From positions 39,163-103,162 of the forward strand of contig JAVKCN010000015.1 of NCBI GenBank assembly GCA_040222715.1: a stretch of 64,000 nucleotides of DNA, written 5' to 3'. The stretch comes from Cyclobacteriaceae bacterium. GTDB taxonomy: Bacteria; Bacteroidota; Bacteroidia; Cytophagales; Cyclobacteriaceae. The notes below the pieces were generated by a model, which saw only the letters and a list, made by a program, of their open reading frames with translations, was not told where the DNA came from and searched no databases. Each line of letters starts with the position of its first letter. Positions within the stretch are counted from its first letter, which is position 1. Shown here one piece after another: positions 15,691-63,999 of the stretch. A program made the translations under genes and the position numbers.

Positions 15691-15857
15691 TTTTTCTCAC
15701 GATTGAGGAGCATTAGCGTTGAAAAGACTTTCCCGATAATCACAAGATCATATACTGACCAAGCTCCTCATATCGAGATTCAAGACCAATTAGCAAGGTA
15801 ATATCGCTTTATACCCTTTGGCTTACATTGCTCATTAATCTTCTTTCAGAAGCCAAA

Positions 15858-16010
15858 GCAGGCAGGAAATATGGCTGCGACACCCGGCGAAACAACAAAG
15901 CAGGGCGGGAATGGTCTCACGACGCCTGTCGGAAAAAGAAAACCGGGGTGCATTGGTGCGACGACACCCGGAGGATGTACAATGACGGGCTGAAAAATAA
16001 TTCCGACAGG
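15858..16010 (+). repeat. Degenerate 42-bp tandem repeat array (~3.6 units)
   Basis: CGAC recurs at 15878, 15920, 15962 and 16004 with GG and other positions in register; 10-bp perfect inverted repeat CCTGTCGGAA (15925) / TTCCGACAGG (16001). Confidence 0.65.
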
Positions 16011-16214
16011 AGAGGATTCCTTCTCCCGCCTGATTCCTACATGTTTTTTACCTACAAGTATGCGGTTAAACAGGTATTTTGAAGCCTATAAGCTATTTTT
16101 TTAAGACAGACTGGTTTAAATTCTTGCATGCACCCATAACACGATCAGTTTGTCTTTTTTTACGGGCTGTTCGCTATGGTTTTTGCTCGCTTTCGGCAAA
16201 CAACCCTGTGTGTT

Positions 16215-16850
16215 ATGAAAAATGAGGCCACGCTGATCCGACAGTTTAAGATTGCCACGCACAATGCGCTGGCTTTCCCGGAAATATTGCAGCAACTGGA
16301 GCAGCATACCCTCAATGAGGCTAAGGTTAAAGAAGGTAAGAAGATTGGGCAACGGGCCATACAACTGCGGCAACAACACCAGCAACTGAAAGCGGATTCT
16401 AAAGAAGCGACCCGGCTCTTTCAGGAAGCTTTTGCCAAAGCCGATTTCCTCTACGGAGAACATCGCACCCTGGCCCAGGTAGCATTTAAAGATCAGGCGA
16501 CCGCATGGGATAAACTGAATCTGAATGGTAGCCGCAAACTACCCCTCATCCACTGGCTGGAGCAGGCCCAGCAATTCTATTCTAATGCCCTTCCCTATAC
16601 TGATACCCTGGCGAAATATAATATGCCTCAGGCAACGCTGAACGAAGCTCGAAAGTTGGTAGATCATATTGAAACGCTGGATATTCTTCGGCAACAGACC
16701 AAAAGCCAGTTACAGGTACTTACCCAGCAAAAGCAGGAAGCAATGACCGAGTTGGAACAATGGATGCGTCGCTTTTACCGTATTGCCCGCGTAGCGCTTG
16801 AAGAGCAGCCTCAACACCTGGAAGCCCTGGGCCTGGTCGTAAAGGCATAG
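16215..16850 (+). CDS. Hypothetical all-helical cytoplasmic protein (~211 aa), paralog of 61486-62118
   Basis: Shares motifs with 61486-62118 by eye alignment, e.g. LEQWMRRFYRIARVALEEQPQHLEALG vs LQAWMYRFDKIAQLAFDDNPQQREALG; probable start ATG 16215. Confidence 0.8.
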   Translation: MKNEATLIRQFKIATHNALAFPEILQQLEQHTLNEAKVKEGKKIGQRAIQLRQQHQQLKADSKEATRLFQEAFAKADFLYGEHRTLAQVAFKDQATAWDKLNLNGSRKLPLIHWLEQAQQFYSNALPYTDTLAKYNMPQATLNEARKLVDHIETLDILRQQTKSQLQVLTQQKQEAMTELEQWMRRFYRIARVALEEQPQHLEALGLVVKA

Positions 16851-58483: not shown

Positions 58484-59569
58484 CTATCGCAATAAAAAGT
58501 TATAGCGTTGAGCTATCTTCCTTGCTTTGCTACTTGCCCCCTCTTGAATAAGCATCCCGATTGTAACGAATGATATGCCTGCCACAAACATTGGCTGATT
58601 AAACTCTCCCCCACCAAAGGAAGACCCCATGGGCCATCCAATCATGGCTCCGCCTATCGTGGCAACGATATTTGCTAAAATATAATTGCTACGGTACTCC
58701 TTATAATATAATATAAGCTGCTCATCATGGTACCTTTGAATTAGTGGGAGTATTTGCTTTGGCTTCGCAAAGCGATGCGTCCCTAAGTAAAACCCTGGTA
58801 CCAATCCGCCTTTGTAAATAAGACGGCTGTTATCTTCATTTAAGTTAATAAATGGAGTATCATTAATTTCTCCAAATGTCTTTCCTAAAGTAATTCCGCC
58901 TCTTAGCCCGTCCCACTGTGGTTTAATACGGACTCCATTGCTACGAAATAGATAAGTGGCGCCAGTTCCTTTACGGTATAGTTCTCTGCTAGTAGCTAAA
59001 TGGTAACCGATGTGGGCATTTACTAGTAACGAGCCCAATCGGTACCGGACTCCTACTTCAGGAGTGATTCCTCCGCCAATGGCGTCGAACTGAATAGAAT
59101 TAATTGAAGAATAATCGTAAACCCGGTTGAGCTCTTCGCTTTTCATAGAGGTAAACGTAAGAAGCAATTGGACAGCAGGTACTACTGACCAGTTTTCAGT
59201 AACTGGGATAATCCGCTCGTACATTCCCCCAATGTTTTCTGCCCTTACTAATTGATCAGAGCGTAATTCGCCAGAATAGTCGCTGTACGCTAGTCTACCT
59301 CCGGTAGATACGTGGCCCCATACAAAACCTAGTCCGTTGAGACCATCCCGCGAATGGTTCATAAATTGAATTTGCCAGTTGTAATAGGCAGGGAAAGCAC
59401 TGGTAGCTTTAATTGGCACATTGTAGATAGACATTAAATCTTGATGAAGAAGCTTTAAGTCTGACATATCGTAACTTCCGTAGCCAACTCTAGCCCGAAA
59501 TGAAGTGTACTGGCCAAGTGCAGGCAGGGCTACCAACAGCCAAAGAATAAACAAGTAGATGGATCGCAT
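58484..59569 (-). CDS. Hypothetical exported protein: outer-membrane beta-barrel-like N-domain plus hydrophobic-hairpin C-domain
   Basis: Signal peptide ending in ALG; alternating beta-strand pattern to GITLGKTF; Gly-rich hydrophobic hairpin afterwards. Confidence 0.6.
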   Translation of the reverse strand: MRSIYLFILWLLVALPALGQYTSFRARVGYGSYDMSDLKLLHQDLMSIYNVPIKATSAFPAYYNWQIQFMNHSRDGLNGLGFVWGHVSTGGRLAYSDYSGELRSDQLVRAENIGGMYERIIPVTENWSVVPAVQLLLTFTSMKSEELNRVYDYSSINSIQFDAIGGGITPEVGVRYRLGSLLVNAHIGYHLATSRELYRKGTGATYLFRSNGVRIKPQWDGLRGGITLGKTFGEINDTPFINLNEDNSRLIYKGGLVPGFYLGTHRFAKPKQILPLIQRYHDEQLILYYKEYRSNYILANIVATIGGAMIGWPMGSSFGGGEFNQPMFVAGISFVTIGMLIQEGASSKARKIAQRYNFLLR

Positions 59570-59578
59570 GGTATTTCT

Positions 59579-61459
59579 TTACAATGTGAGAGGAAGGTAG
59601 TAACCGCCACTGCTAAACAGGGTGCTATTATAGAAATAGTACTTGTAATTCGTTGAATTGTATACACTGACTTGCCGTACAAGCTGGCCCGAATTATAGT
59701 CGTAAATAAGATACTGTTCCGGATAAGCCTTACTCACCCCGCCTACGTAACCCGTTTTAGGGTCAATAGCAGGGTTGATGAGCGTGTGAGCTAACTGCTT
59801 GGTGTTTTGAGCCGCAACATCTGACCAGTTGAATACACGTATTCGCTGATCATCTACTACCATAAACTTCCCATATTCGTCGGGAACGTTCATAACGGTA
59901 TAATCGCCGATGAACGGAAACTGACCTACTTCTTGAATGCTATCAGTGGTAATTTTATAGACAGTCTGATTGCGGGCAAAGTACTCTCCATTGGGAGAAA
60001 GCACTAAAGACTTAAATACCCCATCGAAGGTATGACGACTGTGCAGATGAGCACTATCCATATCAACAATGACAATATCCTGAAGAAATTCGGTTGTATA
60101 CGCGTCCATAACTAAGCGATTGGTATTACTCACTCGCATTATAGACTTACTGCTTGACTGAACACTTCCGCCGACCAACTGCGTCTTACTGAAGGTTTTT
60201 ACCACTGAGAAATCGGAAAGGTTGATGGCTGATATATCAAAGCCGTATTGTCGATAAGCAATGCTGGCATCTTCAGATATTGTGAACGACCAAACCCCGT
60301 CAAAGTCTACCGTGCGGTTCACTTCAAAGCTGCTCTCGTCAAGGGATTGAAGAGTAACATCATAGTGTCCATTTTGGTCCAGCATGTAGATTCTCTTAGT
60401 GGCTGGCCGATACCAAATACGGGTAAATGGTTCCCCTTTCGTTCCGACTATCTGCTTCTCTGTTTCGTCAGCCGGTGCGGTATAATTGCTATCTTCATTC
60501 CGATTTATATACAAACGGTAGCTCACCGTGCTGCTAAAAGGGGCTGAATCTATGCACGTAGTATCATCTGGGTTTTCGGTTTTCTTTACAAGCTCCTCCT
60601 GTGTGCTATACCCATACGAGTCTTTTTCCAATCGATAAATAGAGTAATGGTGCAGATTTGCCGGATATTTGGTCTTCGACCAAGACAGAGCGATTGTAGT
60701 GTCGGTATTCTGTACGGAGTAGAACTCAGGAAAAGAGTCTTCGTATAGCACATCACCGCTACTCAGTTGCGGAAAGTAGTGCGAATCCTTATAATCATCG
60801 TACACGGTAGATACCTGATAGTATTTCCTGCCTCCAATGAATTCATTATCGATATACTCCGTAACTGTAGGATCATCAATCACGATTAGTTGATCAGAGC
60901 TATTATATAGTTGATAAGACACAAAATCTTCTCGGGTATAGGGCTCCCATTCTATTCTGAGGCTTCCTTCATAAGGCTCAATGGCGGTAATTTTAGGTGG
61001 CTGAGGTATCTTTATACGCACAACTATAGGTTGTTGATAGACTATTAATATCCGTTCACTTACTGCTTTTTGCTCTTCAGCCCAACTACCAGTGTTAATA
61101 TCCACAAGCACTTCTGCTTCTAACGTATAGTATCCATCAGGTATACTTTCGCTTCTAAGTCTGAACGAACCCTCTACAGCATAATCACCATAGGTATCGT
61201 GTACTTTGATATCATTTATTGAGAACTTAATATTTTGTATATCGCCTCTACGAACCTCTAGAGTATACCTTATATATTGATTTTCACTGCGCGCATACAC
61301 TGTATCCTCTCCGTCATTGATACGCATTGTCAAACCAATATCTTCTGCCGAAAGTGGATCTATTTGTACTGGATTAACTCCTTCCGGTTCATAATCACAG
61401 GCAATTAGCATGACAAAAACTACTAGTTGCCAATATGGATATGGCTGTCTTATTCGCAT
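59579..61459 (-). CDS. Hypothetical surface lipoprotein (Ig/Fn3-like domains plus beta-propeller-like C-terminus)
   Basis: Lipobox LIAC; Fn3-like LRIEWEPY...YQLY and IALSWSK...YSIYR; repeated beta blades. Confidence 0.7.
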   Translation of the reverse strand: MRIRQPYPYWQLVVFVMLIACDYEPEGVNPVQIDPLSAEDIGLTMRINDGEDTVYARSENQYIRYTLEVRRGDIQNIKFSINDIKVHDTYGDYAVEGSFRLRSESIPDGYYTLEAEVLVDINTGSWAEEQKAVSERILIVYQQPIVVRIKIPQPPKITAIEPYEGSLRIEWEPYTREDFVSYQLYNSSDQLIVIDDPTVTEYIDNEFIGGRKYYQVSTVYDDYKDSHYFPQLSSGDVLYEDSFPEFYSVQNTDTTIALSWSKTKYPANLHHYSIYRLEKDSYGYSTQEELVKKTENPDDTTCIDSAPFSSTVSYRLYINRNEDSNYTAPADETEKQIVGTKGEPFTRIWYRPATKRIYMLDQNGHYDVTLQSLDESSFEVNRTVDFDGVWSFTISEDASIAYRQYGFDISAINLSDFSVVKTFSKTQLVGGSVQSSSKSIMRVSNTNRLVMDAYTTEFLQDIVIVDMDSAHLHSRHTFDGVFKSLVLSPNGEYFARNQTVYKITTDSIQEVGQFPFIGDYTVMNVPDEYGKFMVVDDQRIRVFNWSDVAAQNTKQLAHTLINPAIDPKTGYVGGVSKAYPEQYLIYDYNSGQLVRQVSVYNSTNYKYYFYNSTLFSSGGYYLPLTL

Positions 61460-61485: not shown

Positions 61486-62118
61486 CTACCGCCGCACGGT
61501 CTGCCCCAGGGCTTCACGCTGCTGGGGGTTATCATCGAAGGCGAGTTGAGCTATTTTATCAAAACGGTACATCCAGGCTTGCAGTTTGTCCAGCGTTTGC
61601 TGGCGGGTATCGCTCAATTGCTGGGGCAAGCTCTTCGCTTTAATTTGCAGAGCAAGTAATTCCAGTATCCGATCTACCAAACGACTGGCATCGGTTAATT
61701 CTTTCTGAGGCACCACATACTTCTCCATCATGGCTACAGGAATATGAGCGTAAAACCGCTTGATATGCCGTAGACAATCGGTAGTACTGCGGGGAATAGG
61801 TCCGGTCAGCCGAAGGGTATCCTGGTATTGGGCGGCATCGCGCTGGTAGGCCAGTCGAGCAGTCTCCTGATGCATTCGGAAGCTCCCCATCAATTCCACT
61901 TTCGCCTGGGTGAGTACCTGGGTTGCCTGATACTGTGCTTCCTGGGCCTGTTCCCGCTGCAACGTAAGCTGCGCGATATCCTTATGCATTTTCAACCCAT
62001 CTCGAATTTTCTTTTCATCAAAAGAATACTGCGCCATCACGGTCAGCAGTTCGGGAGAGTTAAGCACGTTGGTCAGGGCGATATACGCCCGCTGAAGAAA
62101 TACATCCTGCTTTTCCAT
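61486..62118 (-). CDS. Hypothetical all-helical cytoplasmic protein (210 aa), paralog of 16215-16850
   Basis: Co-linear shared motifs: IAxxNxLxxPExL, ExKxxxGxK, KYxxPQxxLxxAxxLVDxI, WMxRFxxIAxxA...PQxxEALG. Confidence 0.8.
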   Translation of the reverse strand: MEKQDVFLQRAYIALTNVLNSPELLTVMAQYSFDEKKIRDGLKMHKDIAQLTLQREQAQEAQYQATQVLTQAKVELMGSFRMHQETARLAYQRDAAQYQDTLRLTGPIPRSTTDCLRHIKRFYAHIPVAMMEKYVVPQKELTDASRLVDRILELLALQIKAKSLPQQLSDTRQQTLDKLQAWMYRFDKIAQLAFDDNPQQREALGQTVRR

Positions 62119-62436
62119 ATCCTCATCACATTTTCTGTTACAAAATATTTCTTAAAATACACCTGCCTCACAGGCTACTTACTCAATGGTAAAATCATCT
62201 AAATCAAATCTATCATTTTGGTTTCATAGAGATATATGAATAAAACGAATGTCCAGATGTTTCATGCCATCAATAGCAGGCACGTAAAGATAAAATTGTA
62301 TTTTTTTGCAAAACATTCATAAAATAACCGAAACATGCTTATGTGCTTAATCTATGACTTTGTGTAGTCTACTATGATGTATTGGCCAAATAAGCAATAT
62401 ATAACGCTAGGGAAGAGGTATTCCTATGTAAGAAAA

Positions 62437-62660
62437 TAATCGCCGGTGCACGGGGAGGTGCTCCCCGCGCACCGGTCAGTTTACCGCCTCGCCGGGAGCA
62501 GCTCCCAATGCTCCGGAAAGTTTACCACCTCGCCGGGAGCAGCCACCAACGCTCCGGAAAGTTTACCGCTTCGCCGGGAGCAGCCACCAACGCTCCGGAA
62601 AGTTTATCGTTTCACGAGGAGCTACCCCTAGTACTCTGGAAAATTTACCGCAGGGCAGGA
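62437..62660. repeat. 41-bp tandem repeat array (~5.5 units)
   Basis: Units start at 62478, 62519, 62560, 62601 and 62642 (consensus AGTTTACCGCYTCGCCGGGAGCAGCCACCAACGCTCCGGAA); units 2 and 3 match 39/41, units 1 and 2 match 37/41; degenerate unit at 62437. Confidence 0.92.
62443..62475 (-). terminator. 15-bp GC-rich hairpin, possible terminator for the minus-strand transcript
   Basis: CCGGTGCACGGGGAG-GTG-CTCCCCGCGCACCGG; the single mismatch is a G-U pair on the minus-strand RNA, followed by CGATTATTTTCTT. Confidence 0.5.
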
Positions 62661-62694
62661 AGGTCCTCACTAAGCATCGGTGAGAGTTAACGAG

Positions 62695-63999
62695 CTATTT
62701 TTTTTGCTGGGATAGGAAGGTGACCAGGGAGGCGAATTCTTCGTACGACAGGGCATTGGCCAGTCCGGCGGGCATCATGGAGGTGTCCAGCTCCTTCCGG
62801 GTGGCGATGTTCTCGGCCTTCACGGTAAATACCTGGCCGGCAATGTTGCGGATGACCAGTTGCTCGGCTGATTCCTGAGAGACGAAGCCTACGTAGTTCT
62901 TACCGTCTTTGGTGGTAATCTGTACCGTGGCGAAGCCCTGCGAGATAGATGCATTGGGTTTGAGGATAGATTCGGCAATCTGTTCCCGGGTCATGATGGA
63001 GCCAATCTGGCCCATGAAGGGGCCTTTCATGGTTTCGGAGGTACTGAGACTGTGGCAGGCGACGCAGCCCTGTTTGGTGAAGAGCGTCTTGCCCAGTGCC
63101 GGGTCTCCTTTGATATCGTCTAGCGCCAGCATGATGTCTTCTATAGAGTTCTTCCCAATCTGCCCTTTCTCATTGCTGATTTTACTCAGATCAACTTTTG
63201 CCTCTTCCTGCGATGCCGCCTCTTCTTCTTCGCCCCCAAAGGAGATAATGCCCATGCGGAGCTTGCCGTTGAGGTCGGCAAAGAACTGCTTACCCGCGGT
63301 ATTGGCTTTGTTTCTCTCGGCCATTAGAAAGTCTTTAATCTCCGGAGAAGATTCCCAGGCCACGGCTTTGTAGTACGGGCCGTGGGTATCGGGTCGGGTA
63401 CTCCACCACCAGGAACCATCGTAGGGTGCTTCTTTCTGGTATATCCGCGATAGCGTAGTGAGGATTTCGGCCCGCAGGGCTTCGTTTTTATATTCTTTAT
63501 AGGCATAGATCAACCCTTCTACCGCCTGTGGGTCGTGCATATAGCGTAATGCCCATAGCGCAAGCGTGGAATGATCGGTGCCGATGGCTTGCACGCAGGC
63601 ATTTACGGCATCCAGACTTACCAATGCCTGTACTGCCAGGTGAGCGGGGATAATGGCTGAATTAGGAGTGGCATGTGGGCCTTCCGTCCCTTTTTCGGGC
63701 GCTACAAAGCTGGTGGGCACCGAAATTTCCAGCAGGGCTTCCGCAGCCTCTTTGCGGCCCAGTCGCCCCAGCCCAACAATGGCTGCTACCTGCACCCGGG
63801 GAGATGAGTCTTGAAGAGCATCTATAAATGGCTGCATCGGAACGTCAGCCAGCCAGGCCTTTCTATCGGCCAAAGCCCGGAGGGCAAACTCCTGCACCGT
63901 AGGCTCGCTGGTCAGGCTTACGAGCTTATCAATACCACCTTCGCCCGCTATTTGTGCGTAGGTGAAAATTCCGGCTACCCGTACGTCAAGCGATAAACT
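62695..63999 (-). CDS. HEAT-repeat / c-type heme-binding protein (PVC-type), C-terminal part; gene starts beyond the window end
   Basis: HEAT-like repeats; GDPALGKTLF...CVACH...GPFMGQIG...ESILKPNASISQGF...SMMPAGL; frame open to the window edge. Confidence 0.85.
   Translation of the reverse strand, partial: SLSLDVRVAGIFTYAQIAGEGGIDKLVSLTSEPTVQEFALRALADRKAWLADVPMQPFIDALQDSSPRVQVAAIVGLGRLGRKEAAEALLEISVPTSFVAPEKGTEGPHATPNSAIIPAHLAVQALVSLDAVNACVQAIGTDHSTLALWALRYMHDPQAVEGLIYAYKEYKNEALRAEILTTLSRIYQKEAPYDGSWWWSTRPDTHGPYYKAVAWESSPEIKDFLMAERNKANTAGKQFFADLNGKLRMGIISFGGEEEEAASQEEAKVDLSKISNEKGQIGKNSIEDIMLALDDIKGDPALGKTLFTKQGCVACHSLSTSETMKGPFMGQIGSIMTREQIAESILKPNASISQGFATVQITTKDGKNYVGFVSQESAEQLVIRNIAGQVFTVKAENIATRKELDTSMMPAGLANALSYEEFASLVTFLSQQKK

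Follow-up and report, generated by a model that had tools for sequence, protein, structure and literature searches.

Plasmid iterons and parC-type arrays are helix-phased direct repeats to which the product of an adjacent gene binds cooperatively, in many cases with autoregulation. KfrA of IncP plasmids, an elongated α-helical coiled coil, binds repeats before its own gene and represses that gene. Type III toxin–antitoxin loci comprise the three families ToxIN, CptIN and TenpIN, each with toxins that are structurally homologous to ToxN (Blower et al. 2012, PMC3401426); the repeats usually lie 1–50 nt from the gene, distances of up to 340 bp are recorded, and at most six such loci are reported for one genome (PMC3401426). 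Repeats of constant size and variable sequence, 20–21 nt long with a few at 40–41 nt, have been catalogued by Subirana and Messeguer (PMC8161180, which cites a J Bacteriol 2020 paper), who set the polymerisation of a protein on DNA against small RNAs as explanations and equate 21 nt with two helical turns. The available text of that article is a census, in which no function is proposed and no link to a neighbouring gene family is drawn; the words 'upstream' and 'intergenic' are absent from it.

Here we followed up a 41-bp tandem array that had been noticed in an initial annotation of a 64,000-nt window (the whole stretch of DNA analysed). The array lies upstream of, and on the same strand as, a gene of the PQLLE family (NF052641). 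Such loci share with type III systems a tandem array with units of tens of nucleotides and a gene for a protein of ~200 aa on one strand, with a palindromic terminator between them at this locus; in both, the repeat is private to each locus and several loci can occur in one genome. Unlike a type III toxin, the PQLLE protein is predicted to be an all-helical coiled-coil rod and no structural homologue of ToxN (no PDB match at E <0.2). Most PQLLE loci also differ in lacking a terminator, their spacer measures 100–500 nt, and there are 35 of them in the genome. The layout of this locus agrees with type III, but the defining trait is missing, as the all-helical AlphaFold2 model does not have the ToxN fold; the terminator, present here, seems to be no feature of the family.

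Compared with iteron and parC arrays, the PQLLE loci lack both a Rep, ParM or ParA partner and the setting of a plasmid or origin, and their arrays are dozens of chromosomal copies of unrelated sequence; the protein has neither a winged helix nor a ribbon-helix-helix. The neighbours at this locus are HEAT/cytochrome c and fn3-like genes, with no Rep or ParR/ParM, and clustering the neighbours of all 35 loci gave no recurrent gene besides PQLLE. Since both the Rep or Par partner and the replicon context are missing, the array is not an iteron or parC array. For KfrA, no sequence or fold match to PQLLE was found, and it is a single plasmid gene, whereas PQLLE is a 35-member chromosomal family with constant-period arrays.

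The repeats themselves match those of Subirana and Messeguer as the available text describes them: the PQLLE arrays are non-coding, fixed in length and different in sequence from locus to locus of one genome, and this genome has many loci that agree in repeat length while differing in sequence. They differ from the repeats in that text by a period mainly of 41–43 nt, a host from the Cytophagales and the presence of an array at most PQLLE genes. Literature searches on PQLLE and on Bacteroidetes repeat arrays yielded nothing of relevance, and no description of a pairing between PQLLE gene and repeat was found in the papers searched.

Layout of the array locus

On the minus strand, the order is HEAT/cytochrome c gene, 35 nt, array, hairpin with T-run, AT-rich spacer and 210-aa gene. 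The features, in coordinates of the window, are as follows.

62695–63999, minus: 3′ part of the HEAT-repeat/cytochrome c gene, the co-directional upstream neighbour (stop codon 62695–62697)
62433–62678, minus (the gene's strand): tandem array of six 41-nt registers, five to six units
62678–62638, minus: degenerate register of the stacked units
62637–62597, minus: diverged register of the stacked units
62596–62474, minus: three near-identical core units of the stack
62473–62433, minus: terminal unit of the stack
62443–62475, minus: hairpin from the terminal unit, a 15-bp inverted repeat (62443–62457 with 62461–62475, 93% complementary, one G·U)
62428–62436, minus: T-run and CTTAC motif, TTTTCTTAC, directly after the last unit and kept at the 3′ edge of the array in related loci
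62119–62427, minus: AT-rich spacer of about 310 nt from array to PQLLE gene, unalignable between orthologs
61486–62118, minus: gene for the 210-aa PQLLE-family protein (NF052641, E 1.4e-40, 139 bits against a cut-off of 80)
15837–16850, plus: second module, a degenerate 42-nt array (15837–16016) and a PQLLE paralog (gene 16215–16850)

Tandem Repeats Finder placed the period-41 array at 62453–62613 (3.3–3.8 copies, 87–91% matches, score 210–216), and no other repeat in the 64-kb window scored >60; by self-similarity lag, the array extends from −562 to −304 relative to the PQLLE start codon. Four copies stand in register at spacings of 41, 41 and 41 nt, with identities to the reference copy of 100, 83, 77 and 66% towards the flank, which bears out the initial description of a near-identical centre and degenerate flanks. 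On the minus strand the units have the motif GGTAAAyTTTCCGG ... GGGAGC.GCTCCC in common, and on the plus strand the three central units read CCGGGAGC-N10-GCTCCGG; the pattern CCGG(G)AGC-N10-GCTCCGG had been annotated for these units, and both it and the quoted loops are exact in all three. The same annotation had each unit folding into a hairpin. This holds for the three central units and fails for the flanking ones, and in the minimum free energy (MFE) fold of the complete array, pairing runs between different units rather than within each of them as a hairpin. The separate gene-proximal hairpin of 15 bp that had been described, with a U-rich tract on the minus strand, was recovered at 62443–62475: the inverted repeat, 93% complementary, is followed by CGATTATTTT, and a terminator scan flags the site.

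The array is non-coding, as had been proposed: 41 is not a multiple of 3, and the two plus-strand open reading frames of ~60 aa that span it are read-through artefacts. Two further exclusions in the initial annotation also held. Because the repeat takes in the entire 41-nt unit, it leaves no unique spacers of the kind that define a CRISPR array, and no Cas family was found with Pfam in the four flanking genes scanned. The array is likewise not a member of a dispersed REP/BIME family, since its 123-nt core matches itself alone in the 8.3-Mb genome, and a genome-wide search for a second copy of the unit found none.

The PQLLE protein and the neighbouring genes

The 210-aa protein is basic (pI 9.3) and all-helical, and consists of two homologous halves, each with a 56-residue helix. 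An AlphaFold2 model, for which the paralogs served as the input alignment, is entirely helical (pLDDT 96.4, pTM 0.84). Foldseek searches with this model returned generic coiled coils alone, with a best E of 0.24 in the PDB and 0.11 among viral models (BFVD), and the sequence had no significant match in Pfam, PHROGs, PADLOC or PDB. No recognisable DNA-binding domain was found in the protein, and its predicted fold is neither ToxN-like nor nuclease-like. The pI lies between 8.9 and 9.9 in 34 of the 35 paralogs, which is compatible with nucleic-acid binding without telling DNA from RNA; the acidic exception is on contig C82 (pI 5.3). Residues L102, F122, Y123, W182 and E202, together with G41, H83, P198, Q199 and G205, are invariant or nearly so among the 35 paralogs. 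Both halves contain the common pattern aromatic–x3–(H/F)–x3–AR, where x3 stands for three residues.

The HEAT/cytochrome c gene lies outside the array–PQLLE module, and its transcripts would enter the array. On the other side, a gene for a 626-aa protein with a weak fn3 match only begins 26 nt after the PQLLE gene and is followed by one for a 361-aa signal-peptide protein without a family match (58484–61459). Neither gene is kept beside the PQLLE paralogs or beside the ortholog in G003, a same-genus genome (uncultured Roseivirgaceae MAG, order Cytophagales). In the second module, the PQLLE paralog is 31% identical to the first, the array (lag score 0.62) lies ~200–380 nt before the gene, and the gene that comes after the module differs from that after the first.

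Pairing of PQLLE genes with arrays

An iterative profile search identified 35 PQLLE paralogs in the 8.28-Mb assembly. When self-similarity lag was scored in the 1.2 kb upstream of each gene, the strongest lag was 41–43, 21 or 83–86 nt in 29–30 of the 35, compared with 11% of random 1.2-kb windows, and the signal was centred 100–700 nt before the start codon. The units of the paralogous arrays are unrelated in sequence (e.g. TTGCAGCCCTGCAA..., TTTCGACCGGTCGAAA..., ATGACCCGGTCAT...). As a rough estimate from ~50 detected arrays in the 8.3-Mb genome, arrays accompany <= ~1% of other genes. PQLLE genes from further genera of this family and order likewise have arrays, with periods of 20–22 or 41–43 nt; the PQLLE family itself is patchy, being present in 7 of 201 genomes of the order, with large expansions in a few.

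Over the whole genome, the period histogram from Tandem Repeats Finder has a sharp peak at 41, 42 and 43 nt (10, 23 and 11 arrays, respectively), and an all-against-all BLAST of the arrays gave few related pairs only. About 38 of the 41–43-nt arrays found by Tandem Repeats Finder have no adjacent PQLLE gene. Eight of these resemble the array of one particular paralog; such satellite arrays have a 42–43-nt period, are 84–92% similar to that paralog's array and are intergenic, without an adjacent PQLLE gene (e.g. C163:43861-44046, C133:28729-28855, C44:40804-40903, C154:60229-60335, C49:168821-168930 and C15:20020-20114). The first of them is the look-alike of the array of the C51 paralog. The satellites could be trans targets or remnants. 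The ~30 further 41–43-nt arrays lack both an adjacent PQLLE gene and a PQLLE-linked look-alike. They form a few small families of their own (e.g. C118:37487, C13:119046 and C161:1902), and clustering of the neighbours of unlinked arrays revealed no second gene family beside them. By k-mer counts, no general conserved motif or canonical promoter accompanies the arrays; the only recurrent element is a clade-specific T-run with CTTAC.

The initial annotation had tied its proposal to conservation in relatives, and an orthologous array was indeed found in G003. It has 41-nt units, is 73% identical and lies directly before a PQLLE ortholog of 78% amino acid identity. The neighbours of this ortholog, a divergent ATPase gene upstream and a GIY-YIG gene downstream, differ from those of our locus, so that array and gene have stayed paired under changed neighbours. 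When the two upstream regions are aligned, the array and its 3′ edge alone align and the spacer does not. By eye, the divergent upstream gene on G003:C9 (L004 1–1227) seems to encode an OLD/AAA-type ATPase with the P-loop GENNVGKTN, and the gene 3′ of the ortholog a small GIY-YIG protein, which points to a variable setting akin to a defence island.

A search for related loci with the single PQLLE protein returned none, and with a 3-sequence alignment it returned four. All arrays within the clade of the 210-aa protein have a period of 41. The motif T(4–6)CTTAC stands at the 3′ edge of the array in G003:C9, G000:C98, G069:C67 and G003:C13, whether a hairpin comes before it or not, and across the 41-nt clade (proteins 44–78% identical; L012, L013, L027 and G000:C98) it is better conserved than the repeat units. 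The present array and G000:C98 have a GGTAAAC motif in common, C98 and G069 have ACCG-N2-GGTTTTGG, and G003:C13 has the looser CCCG-N2-GGAAT.TGGG.

For an operational definition we took the unit of PQLLE gene and constant-period array as one module. In the present locus, an NF052641 match above the cut-off lies within ~1 kb downstream of the array, the period of 41 is close to a multiple of ~21 nt, and the unit is unrelated to the arrays of the paralogs. Comparison between loci shows the array as the non-coding half of a two-part module of repeat array and PQLLE gene, and the array is very probably the cis half of that module.

DNA or RNA

Several signals across the arrays bear on whether DNA or RNA is the active form. 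The mean period of 42 nt equals 4 × 10.5 nt, and in related genomes the period is 20–22 nt, in each case regardless of sequence. Compact dyads with arms of 6–8 bp occur in 10 of 19 consensus units, and 8 of these have 0–2 nt between the arms, a spacing seen typically at duplex sites and insufficient for an RNA loop. The A/T content within units has harmonics at 21 and 10.5 nt (z up to 4.8–6.3 against shuffles). Exact TAnnTTTG boxes (the Bacteroidota −7 element) were found at 13 of 96 loci within the 50 nt that immediately precede the start codon and at 0–4 per other 50-nt bin, with no clustering upstream of the arrays in the same 96 loci. As the boxes cluster just before the start codon, the arrays sit upstream of the likely promoter. 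The spacer of the present locus contains one exact −7 box, TAGATTTG, at 62205–62212.

These data lead us to favour, with a probability of roughly 0.4, that the array is a row of phased candidate DNA sites, spaced by four helical turns, which the cognate PQLLE protein would bind. The initial annotation had offered two readings, a structured RNA array and protein-binding sites phased every four helical turns, and of these the second fits the comparative data better. The eight unlinked arrays that resemble one paralog's array look as trans sites would. Also counted in favour of DNA are the basic pI of 34 of the 35 paralogs, the rarity of terminators after the arrays and, from the folding results below, the missing strand preference and the hairpin's lack of conservation and covariation. 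Other observations count against DNA sites. The PQLLE protein has no recognisable DNA-binding domain or structural relative, ~30 further 41–43-nt arrays have no PQLLE link, and this locus, taken by itself, fits the type III layout of array, terminator and gene. The 10.5-nt harmonic, with z = 4.8 relative to shuffles and p = 0.012 relative to random 42-mers, is not significantly above the adjacent spacer (p = 0.16). A further point against DNA is an excess of G·T over A·C pairs on the gene's strand, a pattern expected of sense-strand RNA: imperfect hairpins with 3–14-nt loops contain 62 G·T against 18 A·C in this genome (by arrays 16:2, p = 0.001).

The excess belongs to the case for an RNA partner, in which array RNA from the gene's strand, as a small RNA or a long leader, would be bound and perhaps cut to 41-nt units by the cognate PQLLE protein, a type III-like arrangement built on an unrelated helical protein. 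We consider this unlikely, if well short of negligible. The order of array, palindromic terminator and gene on one strand matches the published type III criteria, the gap is within the 340 bp on record for such loci, and many insulated paralogs with private repeats are what a cognate antitoxin needs; a basic protein would also suit. The G·T excess appears where loops are feasible for RNA and is absent from dyads with 0–2-nt loops (12:10), with control regions at 51–52%. However, it was not replicated in 40 arrays from other genomes (55:49; by arrays 14:10, p = 0.54) and vanishes on the consensus units alone, so we treat it as a lead and not as a result.

The array RNA on the gene's strand is more stable than its shuffles (z = −3.4) and folds better than the plus strand (z = −2.2), but the orthologous array of G003 folds no better than shuffles (z = −0.4). 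Over 19 arrays, the sense strand folds more stably in 12, which is no significant strand preference (p = 0.15). Among nine aligned units from the two species, the outer stem is paired in 76% of cases against 73% in shuffles and the inner GGGAG/CTCCC in 84% against 84%; as stem pairing is close to that of shuffles, there is no covariation in the hairpin. The hairpin with a 10-nt loop, central to the initial annotation, thus does not stand as a conserved feature, and the pairing potential of the array is that of a conserved self-complementary core; comparison lends no support to the processed RNA of that annotation either. Also against an RNA partner are the terminator-like sites, found after the array in only 4 of ~26 paralogous loci, the lack of an enriched canonical promoter motif upstream of the arrays, a PQLLE fold that resembles neither ToxN nor a nuclease, and periods of 21, 42 and 84 nt, each of them a multiple of the helical repeat of DNA.

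Origin of the repeats

A largely neutral minisatellite is an improbable account of the array. On this account the repeats would have a mechanical origin, such as slippage limited by nucleoid packing, and would be tolerated or trapped in the AT-rich regions upstream of PQLLE genes without a specific protein interaction. It would accommodate the ~38 arrays of the same period that lack an adjacent PQLLE gene, the homogenised centre and decaying flanks that any satellite has, and the repeats of constant size and variable sequence reported from many bacteria, with no function proposed, in the available text of PMC8161180. Sequence turnover fits as well: G000 and G003 arrays can be aligned when the proteins are 78–80% identical, and at 62–68% identity they are unalignable in all compared pairs but three, which have 44–49-nt matches. 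Against neutrality stands the association itself, with arrays at 29–30 of 35 PQLLE genes against the roughly estimated <= ~1% of others and the same pairing in other genera. It is also at odds with the two closest ortholog pairs, in which the array is the sole conserved part of the upstream region, and with the period, which agrees exactly (41, 42 or 43) in 9 of the 11 ortholog pairs with both arrays well defined, against 38% by chance (p ~0.004, our own binomial estimate).

That the array is the 3′-UTR or terminator region of the HEAT/cytochrome c gene, its repeats being decayed copies of the terminator hairpin, can be dismissed as very improbable: a co-directional gene does end 35 nt short of the array, whose far end has the only strong terminator-like site, and the units contain the same self-complementary core as the terminal hairpin, but the G003 array exists without a co-directional upstream gene, the arrays of ~30 other PQLLE genes follow unrelated neighbours, and the hairpin is a derived and not an ancestral state. 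The 3′-UTR array of the initial annotation is therefore contradicted in G003, where the array keeps its downstream ortholog between different neighbours and so belongs with the downstream gene.

The hairpin at 62443–62475 probably serves the co-directional upstream gene as an intrinsic terminator. The 15-bp hairpin is strong in this locus alone (z = −5.3) and absent from 4 of 5 related loci, including G003:C9, G000:C98 and G069; a palindromic terminator stands between array and gene here and is absent in the G003 ortholog. We infer that the placement of a co-directional gene just upstream led to the perfecting of the last repeat and the pre-existing T-run as a terminator. In Rfam, the best matches were traJ_5 with 30.8 bits (gathering threshold 50) and FinP with 23.1 bits (gathering threshold 45); both rest on the terminal hairpin and T-run, and membership was rejected.

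Discussion

If the array is a row of phased DNA sites, the module would act at the DNA level through five to six sites, one per 41 bp. As 41 bp is about four helical turns, these sites would all face the same side of the helix, and the basic, rod-shaped PQLLE protein, whose gene lies 320 nt downstream, may assemble on them. The complex of protein and array would act in cis, most simply by controlling the promoter of its own gene, near the gene. Since the unit sequence is private to each of the 35 paralogs, we propose that the modules work without cross-talk. At this locus, the last repeat and the clade-conserved T-run would in addition form the 15-bp hairpin terminator, halting read-through from the co-directional gene.

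More broadly, PQLLE and array may constitute a self-contained and previously undescribed recognition module, in which a two-halved basic rod would read a private unit at a 21/42-nt pitch, in dozens of insulated copies (35 here), some with satellite trans targets. We put this broader proposal at somewhat less than even odds. Should the arrays act as RNA instead, they would represent a type III-like system with an unrelated protein at its core.

Repeats of constant length and variable sequence have been catalogued without a function or a partner in the available text of PMC8161180, and the present genome offers the clearest handle on them yet. If each PQLLE protein reads its own array, a published puzzle would be explained and a new nucleic-acid-binding fold defined, and one organism would provide dozens of naturally orthogonal pairs of protein and site. 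If the recognition-module reading is true, the enigmatic constant-size repeats, or at least those of Bacteroidota, would serve PQLLE proteins as binding arrays.
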